Below are positions 24,001 through 33,000 of a stretch of DNA of 64,000 nt, one piece after another (position 1 is the stretch's first letter; every line of letters starts with the position of its first letter). Location: assembly GCA_963789265.1 (NCBI GenBank), contig CAWBKB010000003.1, forward strand, positions 64,001 through 128,000, given 5' to 3'. The DNA is from an uncultured delta proteobacterium (GTDB taxonomy: Bacteria > Desulfobacterota > Desulfomonilia > Desulfomonilales > Desulfomonilaceae). Made by a program: the position numbers.

Positions 24001-27000
24001 GACAATCGCCGGGATCCGGAGATCAAGAGAATTTGTTTACAGAGTCGGAGAACTTGGACGGCCGTGACGCGTTCAAAGTCCTTGTTTTCTAACGAGGTAT
24101 TTATACCGATTCGCTTTCAAACAAGTGACACGGTGTTTTTAGTGGGACAGGCATCTTGCCTGTCGTCATGCCCGCGTACGTGGGCATCCAGACTGGACCC
24201 CGGATCGAAGTCCGGGGTGACGAATGGCAGGCAGGATGCCTGCCCCACCATATCCTCGCGGGGATTGTCACTTGTTTGATGGCGCACTGGTATTAGGTGT
24301 ATTTTAAAGCGCTTATACTCAAATCCCTTCTTGCCTCTTGAAAGAAGGGGGGTTAGCCGCGTCGCGCAGGCCGGCTTAATGAACGTAAAGGGGTGTCCGG
24401 GCATCGGTTATTCTGCGGAACAACCACCTGCCGCCCCTATGAAGTGTGCTTTTCGTTGCGTGAAGGAGGAGATCCATGACGACAAGGTCCCACAGTTGCG
24501 TAGGATGTGGTGAACCCCCTAGCAGGGGGGTGAACCGCATCTGTCGCGCATCGGTCATCGAGAGACATCTCGGCAAGGTTTTTCGCGACCGATGCGGTTC
24601 CCCCGCGGTCGCGGGGTTCACCACATCCTACGCACTGATCGGTTTGATCGTGCTAATTGCATTCGTCGCGATTTCTCTGCTCGCCGACCTGCCCTTACAG
24701 GCAGCCTCCACTCCGACTACCGCTCCTCAGAAGAAGGTGATGGGGGTCTCGACTCCGGCACCTCCTTCGCCTATCGCCCCTTATGTGGCCCAGGCATATT
24801 CCATAGTAGGGCCGAGCTACGTATCAACGGTCACATCACAGTCCATTACTCTGTCCACGGGCCGGAACGACCTCGGCATCGATCTCACAGGCAAGCATGT
24901 TGTTGTGATAGATCAGGCTTCCAAACCGCTTACACTGAGTGCCGTACAAAAAGGCACGAGGGTGTACGTATGCCGCAAGGCCAATAATGTAGTTGTCATG
25001 GTGCTTCCAGCCGTCACAACACAAGGAGGAGCAAAGAAATGATGCCGCGTCCACTAATCATCCTGACTGCGTTGCTCACCTTGTTGGGGCTCGTGTTGCT
25101 CGCATCCCCCTGCGGGGCTACCCCTTACAATGCTTGAAGCCTTCCCGCTGTCGCCGGTGTGGCGACCAAACCGAATGTGATGATAGTGATGGACTATTCC
25201 GGAAGCATGCAGTTCCGGGCGCACTATAAGAGTGCATCGCAATTTTGGAACGGTTATTATTCTAACAGCAATGTCGCCTATGGTTACGACGGCACGGAAG
25301 GCACCAAGACAGACGGCGAGCCGTACGATCCTACGCAGACCTACTACGGGCTTTTCCAATCTAACGTATACTATACGTACGACGCGGCGAACAAATACTG
25401 GGTTCCCGCGGCTACCCAACCGGTGACGGCTTATAGTTTCACAGCTCCCAGCCGGGACGGCGGTCCTGTGTCCGCGTGGTCGTCGGGTCAAGCTTATGCC
25501 GTGAATGCCCTGGTCGGCGATGGCGGTAAATCTTATATGTGTACTACTGCCCACACATCTGCTTCAACCAATGAACCGGGAACAGGCTCCAATTGGCCAA
25601 CTTACTGGATCTTAGTAGGATCGGGAACCGAGTTGATACAGTACACAGCAACCGGCCATAACTTCCAGGTGGGGCAGCTCGTTGAATTTCAGGGGCTGAC
25701 GAGTCACACTGGAATGAATGGAAATGCCTACTATGTGACTGCGGTTTCAGGCGACACATTCACGGTGGCATTTCCCTGGAACGGAAACCCGGATTCTGCC
25801 ACCGGATCTGCGCAAAGGCGTATTTCAGGGACCCTTCTGACAACTTACGGCGGAACCGCGCAGACACCCGGCCTCAGCGGCAATATTCTCAACTGTGCCA
25901 CCGCCAGCAGAATTGATTGTTCGCTGCAAGCCCTGATAGGCGGCCCTGGCTCGTGTGATTCCAATTATTGCTACATCAGGGGGCAAGGAGAGAGGAGCTA
26001 TCTGCGAGAATCCTCCAACATTCAGGCGGAGTTCTACGTCCGTCCTGCGTCTTCCGATTCTTCCGCGACTTACCCCGACGACTATAATACCGGTACATAT
26101 ACCACGAAGACGACCTACCTGTCGCTAAGCGGCCGGTATGCCGGGAACGTAACTACCGCGGATCCCGCTTTCGGCTCTGCCTGTACTCATCAGACTTGTA
26201 CTTCACAGCACTGCACTCATCGGTACTGCGATGATGCGGACTGCACCGACTATCCATGCACTCATCAGAGCTGCACTCACTGGACGTGCACCGGCAAGAA
26301 TTGTACTGACACTTTATGCCAGCAAGGCTCCTACAAGTGCAGCCATCGCAACTGCGACACCTACCAGTGCGACCGCTGGGGACCGTGCGATGCATGCAAC
26401 AACTGGCAGTGCGACCAGTGGCAATGCGACGCCTACACTTGCGACCAGTGGTCCGGCGGGAACTATTATGAAGCGTACACATTCACTACCGGGAGCACGG
26501 CCACCCACATAGATCTGGCGCTCACCGGGACTTGGACAGGAGGGACCCAGCAAAACCCAACGCAATCGTACCTGGCGCTCTTTAACAATACGAACTTTTC
26601 AGGAAATTCCCTGGCGTCGGACACGGGCTCTACCGCCAATATATCGTATAACCTTGCTGCGAACACAACCTACTATGTGGTCGTGGCAGCCAACAGTGAC
26701 GGCCAGACAGGGTCTTACACGCTGGCCTCCAGCCAGGAACTGGTGGGTTATGATCCTCGTAACCCCAGCAATCCGAGTGTCTCGCCCGGGACCTTTAGCG
26801 GTCAAAGATTACTTCCGACCGGCTTTGCCGTCCCCTTAGGGTCCATTCCCCAGGCCCAGGTAAAAATCAGGGTAGACGTCAACGCACGAACCGGCATTAT
26901 CCAGCAGACTTTCAGCCAGATCAGGTACGGCTTTATGTACTTCAATTCCAGTTCAGGCAATGTCGGCAAAATCCTGGTCGGCTGCGATAACACAAATCTT

Positions 27001-30000: not shown

Positions 30001-33000
30001 CCGCTCGGGAATTTCAAGATAGAGATAAATCCCAGGTGCCCGCAGTCGCCATACGGCTCGTGCCATACAATTCGGGATTGGCCGAAAAGCGGCGATTCCG
30101 CGTGTGTGTGGGTAAAGGACGACGGCACCAAAGATTGCGGGGAAAATACGTGCCACGAGCCGGCAAACCCGTCAGACGCGTGTGCCGATCCCTGCTGGAA
30201 CTGTATCTTCGATCTCATGTCGCCAACGGACATGACAAAGCCAGGGGAACGTGTGGTGCGAAAGGCACTCATAGCAGGAGGCCTGGTTTTTATCGTTACA
30301 ACATCGCCGCCTTCTACTCAGTGTGAATCGCAAGGCACGAGCAAACTTTATGTGCTGAGCTATGATTGTGGACCCATTCCCGGGGGGCAGGATATATTTG
30401 ATTCCAGCATAACAGCGATCGGGCTCAAGACGGGCAATGTCAACGGGTATGATCCGAGAGGTTGGGTGGTTGATCTTGGCACGGGCGTGGCAAGTAATCC
30501 TGTCCTTGATTCCTCCGGTACTCACGTAATAATTCAAATGAGCACGGGACAAATCCCTACGGATAATGGTGGTGGCCCAGGTCTTAGTGTTAAGTTGCCC
30601 CAAAAAGTTATGCAGCCTGAGGGTTGGCGGGAAAGGTAGGGTGCACATTCATCCCAAGCATCTACTTTAAAGAAGGCAGATGCAGAGACGAACGCAGCTC
30701 CCTACAAACTCCGTTTCCCTCCCGGGACGGTAGCGGCCACCAAGACCCGGACCAGGCCGACTATGACGAGAATCGGTCGGGGGAGTTGCTATCAATGGGG
30801 ATTACAGTAATACGTTTTTGGAATCATGAGGTTAATGATAACATAGATAGTGTGTTGGCAGCGATTAGAGAGGCCCTCACCCTTGCCCTCTCCCAGAGGG
30901 AGAGGGGACCAGACGGCGGTTCTCACCTGACTCCCTCTCCCTCTGGGAGAGGGCCGGGGTGAGGGTGCCAGAATCCTTAACCTGGAGGGTTTGCCTCCAC
31001 ATTTGTAGTAAAATAAGCCATTTTTCCGGGAAGAGTCCCACGCTCCGCGGGATTCCCAAGCTTCGTCTCTGAATCCGGACTAAGGCAGGAGATTGCGATG
31101 CTTGCTGTTCGACCTTGGTTTCTGGTTTTGGCGATCGTTTTGGTCTGCGCCGGCATTCCTGCCGCACTTGCCCGGGGTGAGGCTCCGGAAGAGCACAAGG
31201 CTGTCAAACCTACCGTGGTCAAGGTCAGAATTGAACCCGCGCAGCCCCGGACGGGAGACAAGGTTAAGATATATTTCAACCTGGGGGGAGGGGCTGAGCG
31301 TGCTGAAGTAAAATGGTCCTTAAACGGCAAAGAGGTCCAGCTTTCGGATTATATTGAAGCATTCAAGTACGTGGAGTTGAACAAGACGCTCAAGGCCGAT
31401 GACAAAGTTATTGCTGTCATAACTCCGTTCGATGCAAACGGGGTTGCCGGGGCTAAGGTTGTCCGGCGGATTGTTTGCGCGAGCGCTCCACCCGAACTGA
31501 AAGTTGTCGATCAGCGGATCGAAGCGGGAGTGTACAAGGCAACCGTGGAAGCCAAGGACCCTCAAGGTGGGCACGTTTCATTGACCCTGGAAAAGGGACC
31601 GCCGGGAATGACGATGGATCCTAAGGGGAACATTACCTGGCCCTTAGGCAGTGATATCGCAGGCAGATTTCCCGTGAAGATCGAGGCAAAGACCGAAAAG
31701 AGCGGCCAAGCAATTCTCTCATTCGACGTGGGCATAAAGAGAGGAAACCAATGATCCCGGTCTGCCGCATAGGTGCTTTCTTGCCACCCTCCTCCAAACA
31801 CTCCCGTAGAGGATGGGAAACCTGTGAAGGCGCGCCTGAAACCCTCCCCTACCTCTCGCTCCCAGGTGGAATAGGCGCTAACTTGATGTCAGATTCATTG
31901 CATTTGAGGAGACCAGACGGCCGGAGGCCATCAAAGTCCCCCATTTCTAAAGGGAGATTTAGAGGGATTTTCAATGGGTTATCCCCAAACCCCCCCTGGC
32001 CCCCCTTTATGAAGGGGGGGGACCCTTTTAGACGCGGGGTCAGGTTGGCGCCTGTGGTCCCAGGTGGAGAAGACAGACTGAGGGGCGATCCGCGGTCAAG
32101 GCATAGGGCATGCTTCAACTCTAATTGCTACCGCTCCCGCGGGTTCACCTTCATTGAATTGCTCGTCGTGGTAACTATTATAACGATCTTTGCAGCAATC
32201 GCGTTGCCGACGGGGTTGCACTGGCTCACCGATTATCGGTTAACGCAGGCAGTCAGATCCTTATCCAACGCGGTTCTTATGGCCAGGATGCGCGGCATCG
32301 AGAATAGGTCGGTCATCACGATAACCACAAGTGTGACGTCAACCGACAGCCCTTTCACCGCGACTTGTCCGGGTATCATATTTACTACAAATGTAGACCA
32401 CGGGCTCACCGGGCCCAATCCGGTCGTGACCAACTACCTCGTAGATCCCACTACCCTCAGTCCTGCTCCCCCGCCGCTCTCGCCACGCTATTGGCCTGTC
32501 TCTAATTGTAAATGTGTCAAGGACCTTGGCAGCCCCCCATCCACCACGCCGACGCCGGGTGATACGGTCATGTTTTCCGGGTTAGATCACACTAAATCAA
32601 TGAATGGCGCCGAGTTCGAGGTCTTGACCATTCCCTCTTCAACTCAGTTCGCTGTGCAGCACACTTATAACGTGATCCTGGGAGACCTTCCAAGTGGCGA
32701 TACCAAGGGTACGGTGCGGAACCTGATTGCGCCCGGCAGGCTGAGGATAGTGCCCGCGACTGCTGTATTGACCACCCCCACGAACGACAACCAGGAGAAC
32801 TTTTCGTCTTCCGGGTTTACGATCAAAGAAGAGGCATCCACGATAGTTTTCAGGTACAACACAGACCAATTCCAGATTACCTTTTACGCCGGTAACCCTC
32901 CTATTCCTTCCGACACCCCTACGCTGGATCCCTCGTCAACGGCATACAATTTTGCTGAAATCAGGTTTGACAACCGTGGATTTCCTAAATCAACTCTTGC

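Follow-up and report, generated by a model that had tools for sequence, protein, structure and literature searches.

To our knowledge, almost all known selenoproteins are redox enzymes, and we know of no described PilY1 protein that contains selenocysteine (Sec). In von Willebrand factor A (vWA) domains, a terminal disulfide anchors the N-terminal end of the force-bearing vWA module. Myxobacterial PilY1 clades combining a vWFA domain with a propeller have been reported (PMC13190605), and in another study the vWA cysteine Cys152 of P. aeruginosa is reported to alter the mechanical behaviour of the pilus (PMC8806160). A 2026 catalogue of 119 prokaryotic selenoprotein families contains no pilus, adhesin or vWA protein and, as the preliminary description of the locus studied here had stated for its table, no PilY1 selenoprotein; the words pilus, pili, PilY and vWA do not occur in its text (PMC13188914). 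Listed in it are extracytoplasmic selenoproteins without a thioredoxin fold, i.e., a TonB-dependent receptor of the FCYXU type, an outer-membrane protein of the GSU2204 family and the multihaem cytochrome ExtKL (PMC13188914, Table 1).

We analysed a window of 64,000 nucleotides (assembly GCA_963789265.1, contig CAWBKB010000003.1, positions 64,001 to 128,000) from the genome of an uncultured member of the Desulfomonilaceae, referred to as G000; all positions count from the first nucleotide of the window. As shown in Table 1, it contains a pilY1-like gene whose frame runs from the ATG at 25039 to the TAG ending at 30639 and is interrupted solely by the TGA at codon 33. That the two open reading frames on either side of this TGA form one frame had been noted before. 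Listed separately, they extend from 25039 to 25137 (32 amino acids) and from 25159 to 30639; the size of 1819 amino acids previously given for the second one is obtained from the ATG at 25180, and it becomes 1826 amino acids if the GTG at 25159 is used.

Table 1. Features of the pilY1-like locus in the window
Feature	Position	Strand	Basis or remark
Shine-Dalgarno motif GGAGG	25025..25029	+	9 nt upstream of ATG 25039; seen directly in the sequence
pilY1-like gene	25039..30639	+	1866 codons including one UGA (codon 33); stop codon TAG 30637-30639
Putative signal peptide, codons 1-27 (MMPR, hydrophobic core, SPCGA)	25039..25119	+	hydropathy; cleavage after A27 inferred
Proposed Sec33 codon (UGA), about residue 6 once the signal peptide is removed	25135..25137	+	aligned Cys codon; TGA in 7 assemblies; short-read contig
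SECIS-like hairpin GUCGCC-GGUGU-GGCGAC	25150..25166	+	begins 12 nt after the UGA; UGA-to-loop distance 18 nt
MIDAS-type motif D52-x-S54-x-S56 of the split vWA-like domain	25192..25206	+	D52, S54 and S56 invariant in alignments A1 and A2
PilY1 beta-propeller region	28270..30636 (approximate bounds)	+	Pfam, residues 1513-1617; phmmer against 3hx6, residues 1262-1299
Cys1234 of the beta-propeller (within GGCVHR), candidate for bonding to Sec33	28738..28740	+	co-occurrence with Cys33
Four pilin-like genes downstream	31751..35473	+	Pfam scan
Pilin-like gene	31751-33163	+	N_methyl motif
Pilin-like gene	33200-33616	+	N_methyl motif
Pilin-like gene	33635-34642	+	N_methyl motif
Pilin-like gene	34901-35473	+	PilX_N

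The assignment to PilY1 was confirmed by the Pfam model T4P_PilY1 (PF05567; 33 bits at a cut-off of 28.1), by the match of a profile built from 14 homologues to the PilY1 structure PDB 3hx6 (E 9.4e-28) and by linkage to minor-pilin genes, three open reading frames with an N_methyl motif and one with PilX_N lying at most 5 kb downstream. In the close homologue P0002, T4P_PilY1 begins at residue 1078. The motif previously described as DxSGSM is present as DYSGSM (residues 52-57). Pfam VWA models gave no match to the protein P0001 and were found in a minority of the members of the atlas clusters of relatives. In the homologues of alignment A1, AxA-type sites lie 4-6 residues upstream of the cysteine. 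These data support the prediction that the gene product is a single secreted type IV pilus tip protein of the PilY1 type with 1866 residues. Its predicted architecture is best explained by a signal peptide, followed by a vWA-like domain into which a large Cys-rich stretch is inserted (about 550 residues, with a run of Cx4C repeats), and by a C-terminal beta-propeller.

At 141 of 160 related loci, drawn from two collections, the codon aligned to the UGA specifies cysteine. Among 80 loci on genome contigs, 68 have a Cys codon (42 TGC, 26 TGT), 4 have TGA and 8 have another codon; the corresponding numbers for 80 loci on metagenome contigs are 73 (49 TGC, 24 TGT), 2 and 5. C33 is present in all 20 non-TGA rows of alignment A1. 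The earlier assignments of TGA to the congener G026 and of Cys to G043, G045 and G047 were all reproduced, whereas the statement that TGA occurs in two genomes only proved too narrow: the codon was found in G000, in four of six other congeners (G026, G028, G029, and G030) and in the metagenome contigs L158 and L159. The two other congeners searched, G025 and G027, gave no match, and apart from G000 the TGA form was absent from 401 sampled genomes of the phylum. The TGA form looks limited to one clade, parts of which have apparently decayed. We regard an error of sequencing or assembly as the origin of the TGA as already refuted. Frameshifts are present elsewhere in the assembly, e.g., in rpoB, but these errors are indels and not substitutions, the same codon occurs in seven separately assembled sequences, and short-read contigs from public runs contain the TGA, among them a 545-nt contig of X1 that spans positions 24788-25332 with 0 differences.

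Conservation of the frame and purifying selection on it, both upstream and downstream of the UGA, are supported by the substitution patterns. Pairwise dN/dS among the TGA forms, which span dS values of 0.69-1.40, is 0.18-0.24 both before and after the TGA, and between TGA and Cys forms it is 0.14-0.19. For codons 1-32 alone, values of 0.18 and 0.33 were obtained, and in codons 2-32 the variable sites at codon positions 1, 2, and 3 number 17, 9, and 22 (of 31 each). In some TGA-bearing relatives the gene looks degraded, with frameshifts or stops: G026 has three frame changes, G030 four, G028 at least seven and G029 at least ten, L159 has one frameshift and a TAA, and L158 is truncated. The pilin genes downstream also appear damaged in G028 and G029; the genes flanking pilY1 in G026 are almost clean. 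Together with the restriction of the TGA to one clade, such damage would fit a nonsense mutation inherited by the clade, with the gene being either a pseudogene or the source of a signal-less product made by restart downstream. The preliminary description had named a shared nonsense mutation with restart as the scenario that might overturn its reading. We consider it very improbable, as it is contradicted by the low dN/dS of the TGA forms and of the 32 upstream codons and by the lack of any Shine-Dalgarno-like motif before the in-frame GTG and ATG codons that follow the TGA (25159, 25177, 25180, 25186, and 25189). Moreover, 1826 codons stay open past the TGA in G000, and a restarted product would have no signal peptide and an incomplete first vWA strand. 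The assemblies are also indel-prone in general, rpoB being split over three frames in G000 and over many in G030.

In the TGA forms, the UGA is followed at a spacing of 18 nt by a hairpin with a 5-nt loop starting with GG, a stem of 6-7 bp and an energy of -9.5 to -12.8 kcal/mol (-9.5 to -10.3 kcal/mol cited for the hairpin of the window). All four values are inside the range of the bSECIS model, i.e., a loop of 3-9 nt with a G within the first two positions, a stem of 4-16 bp, a distance of 16-37 nt from the UGA and an energy of at most -7.5 kcal/mol (PMC13188914, section 5). The stem of 7 bp (GGUCGCC/GGCGACC) described earlier is present in the congeners; in G000 it comprises 6 bp, the seventh pair being a U/C mismatch. 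The fdhA SECIS of the same genome has the same spacing of 18 nt and the loop GGUCU, and both loops start with GGU. The hairpin is the strongest synonymous constraint in the pilY1-like gene: codons 38-43 show zero synonymous changes across six TGA forms, the two invariant windows among 489 six-codon windows of four-fold sites both lie in it, and it is the second-longest identical run (20 nt) of G000, G026, and G030 in 5,199 aligned nt.

The earlier statement that such a hairpin follows only the TGA forms holds against other genera, where a simple SECIS test picks out 1 of 75 distinct Cys forms, but not against the nearest Cys relatives: L156, L157, and L160 keep the stem and are the only positives (3 of 63) among the distinct Cys forms from metagenomes. 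The hairpin alone is therefore not diagnostic of Sec. No covariation was seen in the hairpin, five of its seven pairs never varying, and the same was the case in 98 of 500 shuffles. Folding z-scores were modest (-1.1 to -2.3), the minimum-energy fold of 51 nt in G000 favours a different pairing, and no Rfam family matches the hairpin. From a reading of the codons, four of the six stem pairs are dictated by the peptide V-A...A-T. The SECIS may have arisen by recruitment of a hairpin nearly encoded already by the conserved peptide V-A-G-V-A-T. A bolder possibility is that the stem retained in some Cys forms still serves a factor resembling SelB (selC*/SelB*, a system seen in G026).

The Sec machinery of G000 is complete, consisting of selA (594 bits), selB (386 bits), selD, which has a TGA of its own, and a tRNA-Sec with the anticodon UCA, the discriminator G73 and an 8-bp acceptor stem. 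Two fdhA-type genes with TGA are also present, and selB and tRNA-Sec were found in five of five congeners tested. The UGA might instead be translated as cysteine or another standard residue, either through a tRNA(Cys) that resembles tRNA-Sec and has the anticodon UCA, together with a second SelB (selC*/selB*), or by near-cognate read-through. Delta-proteobacteria including Desulfomonile tiedjei have been reported to possess selB* and selC* tRNA(Cys), the latter with the anticodon GCA or UCA (PMC5389517), and in the congener G026 a selC*-like tRNA adjoins a second selB-like gene. The anticodon of this tRNA, however, is GCA, so that it cannot read UGA. Among the 48 tRNAs detected in G000 with aragorn there is a single UCA anticodon, carried by the tRNA with the G73 discriminator of tRNA-Sec, and there is one selB-like gene above 200 bits; neither a tRNA-Sec-like tRNA combining U73 with the anticodon UCA nor a second selB was found in G000, which at 95.6% completeness may lack a gene. 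Insertion of a standard residue is even less probable, in our view, than an inherited nonsense mutation.

Each standard computational hallmark of a bacterial selenoprotein gene for which the locus was tested is present, and the selenoprotein reading of the preliminary description is supported by the Cys alignment, the selection on both sides of the UGA, the hairpin conforming to the SECIS model, the Sec machinery and the other TGA-containing selenoprotein genes. The UGA at codon 33 is probably decoded as Sec, and the pilY1-like gene would represent, as judged from its sequence, a new selenoprotein family with a known recoding mechanism. Recoding would follow the ordinary bacterial route, in which SelB with Sec-tRNA(Sec) binds the hairpin with the GGUGU loop, and removal of the signal peptide would leave Sec as approximately the sixth mature residue.

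A candidate partner of residue 33 emerged from the distribution of cysteines. In 104 informative homologues, C33 and C1234 are both present in 71 and both absent in 25, and 8 homologues break the rule (C33 only in 6, C1234 only in 2), corresponding to an odds ratio of 148. Across 9 phylogenetically independent pairs, C1234 changed in the same direction in 5.8 and in the opposite direction in 0.1 (sign test on independent pairs, median p 0.031). The control cysteine C723 is kept in 26 of 27 proteins without C33. C1234 is retained in G000, G026, and G030 and lies within the stretch aligned to 3hx6. Joint gain and loss of C33 and C1234 is predicted of a bonded pair, and on this correlated presence and absence across homologues we propose, at about even odds, that Sec33 and Cys1234 are joined by a selenenylsulfide. 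In the Sec form, the selenenylsulfide would take the place of a disulfide and connect the propeller, which is proximal to the pilus, with the N-terminal end of the adhesive vWA module. More speculatively, such a link might resist reduction better, or exchange faster, in an anoxic reducing habitat or under the load of pilus retraction.

Sec could also be inserted without forming a structural cross-link and act at the adhesin tip as a selenol that is free or exchangeable, for example in a redox-active, metal-binding or substrate-attacking role. Cys forms within the same clade carry extra adjacent cysteines (YQCCS, YNCCFCP, and YKACFCP) that resemble reactive or metal-binding motifs, metal-binding selenoproteins have CU, CxU and UxC motifs (PMC13188914, Table 1), and the six homologues with C33 only lack the proposed partner. 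The joint gain and loss of the two cysteines and the single Cys at site 33 of the outgroup forms argue against a free selenol, which we consider unlikely. On the tree, Sec and the Cys-Cys or CxC solutions are predicted to have been exchanged at least twice among related lineages. Returning to the cross-link, we tentatively propose, with somewhat less confidence than in the bond itself, that selenium might act here as a structural and mechanical element, Sec33-Cys1234 stapling the adhesive vWA module to the propeller. The protein would then mark the first occurrence of a selenoprotein in a bacterial surface appendage and a use of Sec outside catalysis.

Reading the UGA as Sec would place selenium in a surface adhesin instead of an enzyme, and Sec in a bond predicted to link two domains of a force-bearing adhesin would, if true, broaden the known uses of selenium. 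It would also provide a natural Sec, Cys and Cys-Cys series for asking why Sec is preferred to Cys outside catalysis, and would link pilus function of anaerobic soil bacteria to selenium supply. For the PilY1 subfamily as a whole, including its Cys forms, the co-varying C33-C1234 pair offers a structural prediction that can be tested. Gene callers report two products in place of this gene, a peptide of 32 aa and a PilY1 that lacks the signal; since truncated starts of this kind are seen in the database homologues P0005-P0007, similar selenoprotein cases have probably been overlooked.

Among known systems, the protein is most readily compared with the PilY1/PilC tip adhesins (P. aeruginosa PilY1, 3hx6; myxobacterial clades with vWFA and propeller, PMC13190605), with which it shares the C-terminal PilY1 propeller, a high number of cysteines, the minor-pilin linkage and, as predicted, a signal peptide and a putative MIDAS motif of the vWA type near the N-terminus. 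It differs from P. aeruginosa PilY1 by Cys instead of Ala at position 1234 and from other PilY1 proteins by the insert with the Cx4C run that splits its vWA-like domain. Like the FdhA and SelD genes of the same genome, the gene has an in-frame UGA followed by a stem-loop in the coding region, with a spacing and loop start as in fdhA, and has Cys homologues; unlike these, it encodes a predicted surface adhesin of 200 kDa and no oxidoreductase, and its Sec is predicted to bond and not to catalyse. In contrast to canonical selenoprotein genes, its hairpin is largely encoded by a conserved peptide. The selC* tRNA(Cys)/SelB* system (PMC5389517) belongs to the same bacterial group, has a counterpart in G026 and could in principle use SECIS-like hairpins, but differs in the GCA anticodon found in G026 in place of UCA and was not found in G000. 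With the extracytoplasmic selenoproteins of the catalogue, the PilY1-like protein has in common that they are exported envelope proteins of anaerobes and have Sec instead of Cys at a site that is not in a thioredoxin fold; pilus and vWA proteins are missing from that group. Finally, as in the terminal disulfide of von Willebrand factor A, a chalcogen bond would be located at the N-terminal end of a vWA module, but here the putative partner is about 1,200 residues away in another domain, and one of the two atoms would be selenium.

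The 32 codons ahead of the in-frame TGA of the pilY1-like gene (see table) encode a typical signal peptide, and after the TGA another 1826 codons follow in frame before the TAG. The read-through product, to which all residue numbers refer, has 1866 residues and comprises a DYSGSM MIDAS-type motif (residues 52-57), a long cysteine-rich insert, and a PilY1 beta-propeller; 62 cysteines plus the proposed Sec33 follow residue 27. The Pfam family T4P_PilY1 matched the product with 33 bits (cut-off 28.1), and the PilY1 structure PDB 3hx6 matched it with an E value of 6.6e-5 (phmmer) and matched a profile of 14 homologues with an E value of 9.4e-28. 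A scan of the joined protein with NCBIfam release 20 returned no family, and the five database homologues looked up by cluster (P0002 and P0004 to P0007) were all singletons, either PilY1 by name or unnamed. Four pilin-like ORFs lie within 5 kb downstream of pilY1; three have the motif for N-methylation of prepilins, and the fourth has PilX_N. The TGA was reproduced by short-read contigs of public sequencing runs; the contig of run X1, whose source sample may be the one behind the assembly of the window, covers 545 nt (24788-25332) with 0 differences. A contig of run X3 carries a synonymous C>T exchange (ACC to ACT) at 25167, the base immediately 3' of the 6-bp stem that follows the UGA, and its TGA is intact.

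Features of the pilY1-like locus (window coordinates)
Feature	Position	Strand	Remark
Shine-Dalgarno motif GGAGG	25025-25029	+	strong motif upstream of ATG 25039
pilY1-like gene	25039 (ATG) to 30637-30639 (TAG)	+	single frame interrupted by TGA 25135-25137
SECIS-like hairpin GUCGCC-GGUGU-GGCGAC	25150-25166	+	6 bp in the window's own genome (G000)

Several neighboring features were also recorded. The insert in the vWA-like domain contains about 17 cysteines at 26180-26460 (residues ~382-468), mostly spaced by five residues (CTHQT CTSQH CTHRY ...). A DUF559 fragment (30624-30962) directly follows pilY1, and an IS200-like transposase (Y1_Tnp, 35581-36036) follows the pilin genes. A second PilY1/vWA-like paralogue of the same genome (C1:1213530-1213985, minus strand, and downstream) has a Cys codon at the corresponding position (TYTPQCQVPP); its frame stops after 814 residues in the present assembly, and the paralogue is also found in the congener G026 (locus L104).

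In an alignment of 23 family N-termini, position 33 was Cys in all 20 rows without the TGA. Among the best 80 loci of the whole genome collection, represented by one genome per species, codon 33 was TGC in 42 cases, TGT in 26, TGA in 4, and a codon for Ala, Val, or Ser in 5, 2, and 1 cases, respectively; the best 80 metagenome loci comprised 49 with TGC, 24 with TGT, 2 with TGA, 4 with Ala, and 1 with Thr. Loci with TGA at this codon (TGA forms) occurred in the window's own genome, in four of the six other congeners searched (G026, G028, G029, and G030), and on the metagenome contigs L158 and L159, which are nearly identical to each other. The congeners G025 and G027 gave no match to the gene in this search, and 401 sampled genomes of the phylum, 78 of which gave 88 matches in all, added no further TGA form. 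The bacterial family in question is Desulfomonilaceae; the order-level genome set consisted of the same 70 genomes as the family-level set.

A TGA shared by related genomes might be an inactivating stop codon inherited from their common ancestor. After removal of HSPs with more than one stop, dN/dS (Nei-Gojobori) of G000 was 0.18 against G026 (dS 0.69) and 0.20 against G030 (dS 1.40), and when restricted to the 32 codons before the UGA the values were 0.18 and 0.33, respectively. Every pair of TGA forms, including L159, gave values of 0.18-0.24, and comparisons of TGA forms with loci carrying a Cys codon (Cys forms) gave 0.14-0.19. Across codons 2-32 of six TGA forms, 17, 9, and 22 of 31 sites were variable at codon positions 1, 2, and 3, respectively. 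These dN/dS values and the codon-position pattern show that the gene is under purifying selection both before and after the UGA, which is incompatible with an ancestral inactivation. Restart of translation downstream of the TGA would cost the signal peptide, and no ribosome-binding motif was found ahead of any in-frame start there.

The chief evidence against the selenocysteine reading is the broken copies in relatives. We counted 3 frame changes in pilY1 of G026, 4 in G030, at least 7 in G028, and at least 10 in G029; L159 has one frameshift and one TAA, and L158 ends after 547 codons. These frame changes are concentrated around the cysteine run at 26180-26460. The assemblies are indel-prone, as is evident from rpoB, which is split over three frames in G000 (C3:808388-812571) and over many in G030, and caution is therefore also needed with other split genes of G000. 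Flanking genes of G028, G029, and G030 likewise show frame changes, and the adjoining pilin genes of G028 and G029 look damaged as well; the flanks of G026 are nearly clean. In our reading the defects have two sources: the pilus cluster of one sub-lineage has recently decayed, and the assemblies contain errors in a gene that is variable and rich in repeats. In view of the dN/dS values, any decay is therefore young.

The hairpin after the UGA had been given a 7-bp stem in the preliminary description. This length holds for the other TGA forms, where the seventh pair is G-C, but in G000 the stem has 6 bp. The available part of PMC13188914 describes a bacterial SECIS model with a stem of 4-16 bp, a distance of 16-37 nt from the UGA, an energy of at most -7.5 kcal/mol, and a loop constraint; the hairpin agrees with the model on all four counts, its distance being 18 nt and its energy -9.5 to -12.8 kcal/mol. 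The SECIS of the bona fide fdhA of G000 likewise has a spacing of 18 nt, with the loop GGUCU, and spacings of 19-23 were found for selD and the second fdhA-type gene. Each of the six hairpin codons is four-fold degenerate, and six TGA forms have no synonymous substitution in them. Only one identical run in the 5199 nt aligned between G000, G026, and G030 is longer than that of the hairpin (20 nt), which is also the sole place with six successive invariant four-fold codons (2 of 489 windows). Some observations weigh against reading too much into the hairpin: four of the six stem pairs are set by the peptide V-A...A-T, folding z-scores were only -1.1 to -2.3, a competing fold exists in G000, and covariation in the stem was looked for and not supported. 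An Rfam scan of 24900-25400 (E up to 10) gave two chance matches and no SECIS family.

A simple SECIS test was passed by all distinct TGA forms (5/5 in the genome set and 2/2 in the metagenome set), and, among the distinct Cys forms, by 1 of the 75 from genomes and 3 of the 63 from metagenomes. The latter three are precisely L156, L157, and L160, the nearest Cys forms with DNA available. They too keep the stem, with a C-G pair changed to G-U and the loop GGUGU in L156, the loop GGCGC in L157, and GGGAU in L160. The stem therefore belongs to the clade and not to the TGA forms alone, and its exact version with the GGUGU loop is invariant solely in the TGA forms. The longest identical run of the gene in G000, G026, and G030 is a 21-nt block, TTGTTGGGGCTCGTGTTGCTC (25081-25101, codons 15-21), in the signal-peptide region, which has two synonymous differences in L158. 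A long-range helix between part of this block and the bases right after the UGA, proposed by RNAalifold, had a covariation term of about 0 and was set aside as unproven.

One tRNA of G000 has the anticodon UCA; its discriminator is G73, its acceptor stem has 8 bp, and its extra arm is long. G000 also possesses selB (386 bits), selA (594 bits), and selD, which has its own TGA; two fdhA-type genes also contain an in-frame TGA. Both selB and tRNA-Sec were found in all five congeners tested. In the window, the minus strand of 52096-55906 carries a molybdopterin-oxidoreductase-like ORF with Fdh-alpha matches next to a weak selD-like ORF (55211-55906; 73.7 bits, under the cut-off of 125). We also considered whether the UGA might be decoded as Cys by a tRNA-Sec-like tRNA(Cys) system, which is known from this bacterial group according to the available part of PMC5389517. 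At C59:68823-69833 (locus L255 2324-3334), G026 indeed carries such a tRNA (53.7 bits on RF01852, discriminator U73, long extra arm), and a second selB-like gene that scores 263 bits directly follows it, which corresponds to the selC*/selB* arrangement described there. However, its anticodon is GCA, and neither a tRNA-Sec-like tRNA(Cys) nor a second selB-like gene was found in G000.

One well-supported clade (100/100) unites all TGA forms with some Cys forms, which have an additional neighboring cysteine (YQCCS, YNCCFCP, YKACFCP). Its inner branching was unresolved on 341 N-terminal columns, for which G028, G029, and L160 were omitted. FastTree was run on full-length rows minus the first 60 residues, without L156 and L158-L160 and with the rows of G026 and G030 pieced together across frame changes. 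It grouped the TGA form of G030 with the Cys form P0004, and those of G000 and G026 with P0005/P0006 and the Cys forms P0002/P0003, each with an SH-like support of 0.99. These two groupings therefore imply that Sec and Cys were exchanged for one another at least twice.

The presence of Cys33 is coupled to that of Cys1234 (GGCVHR), which falls in the part of the protein that aligns with the propeller of the solved PilY1 structure (3hx6) and is retained in G000, G026, and G030. Among 104 informative homologues (118 rows less 14 fragments or misaligned rows), 71 have both cysteines, 6 Cys33 alone, 2 Cys1234 alone, and 25 neither, giving an odds ratio of 148, uncorrected for kinship. The substitutes at 33/1234 are varied (T/T, A/E, E/S, G/D, and others), and the tree requires no fewer than 12-14 changes at each site. 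Over nine phylogenetically independent pairs, Cys1234 changed in the same direction in 5.8, in the opposite direction in 0.1, and not at all in 3.1; the sign test gave a median p of 0.031. Of the 27 proteins that have no C33, 26 have the control cysteine C723, and cysteines 984, 994, and 1777 are, unlike Cys1234, only clade-specific. Because Cys33 and Cys1234 co-occur and change together, we infer that residue 33 may be bonded to Cys1234. With Sec at this position, the predicted selenenylsulfide would fasten the N-terminal end of the vWA-like module to the propeller. The PilY1 of P. aeruginosa differs in having Ala at the position of Cys1234. Cysteines in a PilY1 vWA domain alter how the pilus responds to force (PMC8806160, available part), and in one measured case an Se-S bond had a potential of -222 mV, slightly more negative than the -205 mV of its S-S homologue (PMC9159075, available part). 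An adaptive rationale for an Se-S link is speculation.

Table 1 of PMC13188914, a 2026 review available in part, names 119 families or subfamilies of prokaryotic selenoproteins; the whole table has no entry for PilY1, pilus, adhesin, or vWA, and the terms pilus, pili, PilY, and vWA do not occur in the main text. No Sec-containing pilus protein was found in the literature on PilY1, the type IV pilus, and Desulfomonile selenoproteins, judged partly by title and start of the abstract, nor among the top 12 of 170 papers listed for selenocysteine, an in-frame UGA, and pilus assembly proteins. From its sequence, the PilY1-like gene represents a probable new selenoprotein family, whose occurrence in the collections searched is restricted to a single clade of uncultured Desulfomonilaceae. 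Its recoding mechanism would be the known one, and the unusual points are the kind of protein and its predicted non-catalytic role.
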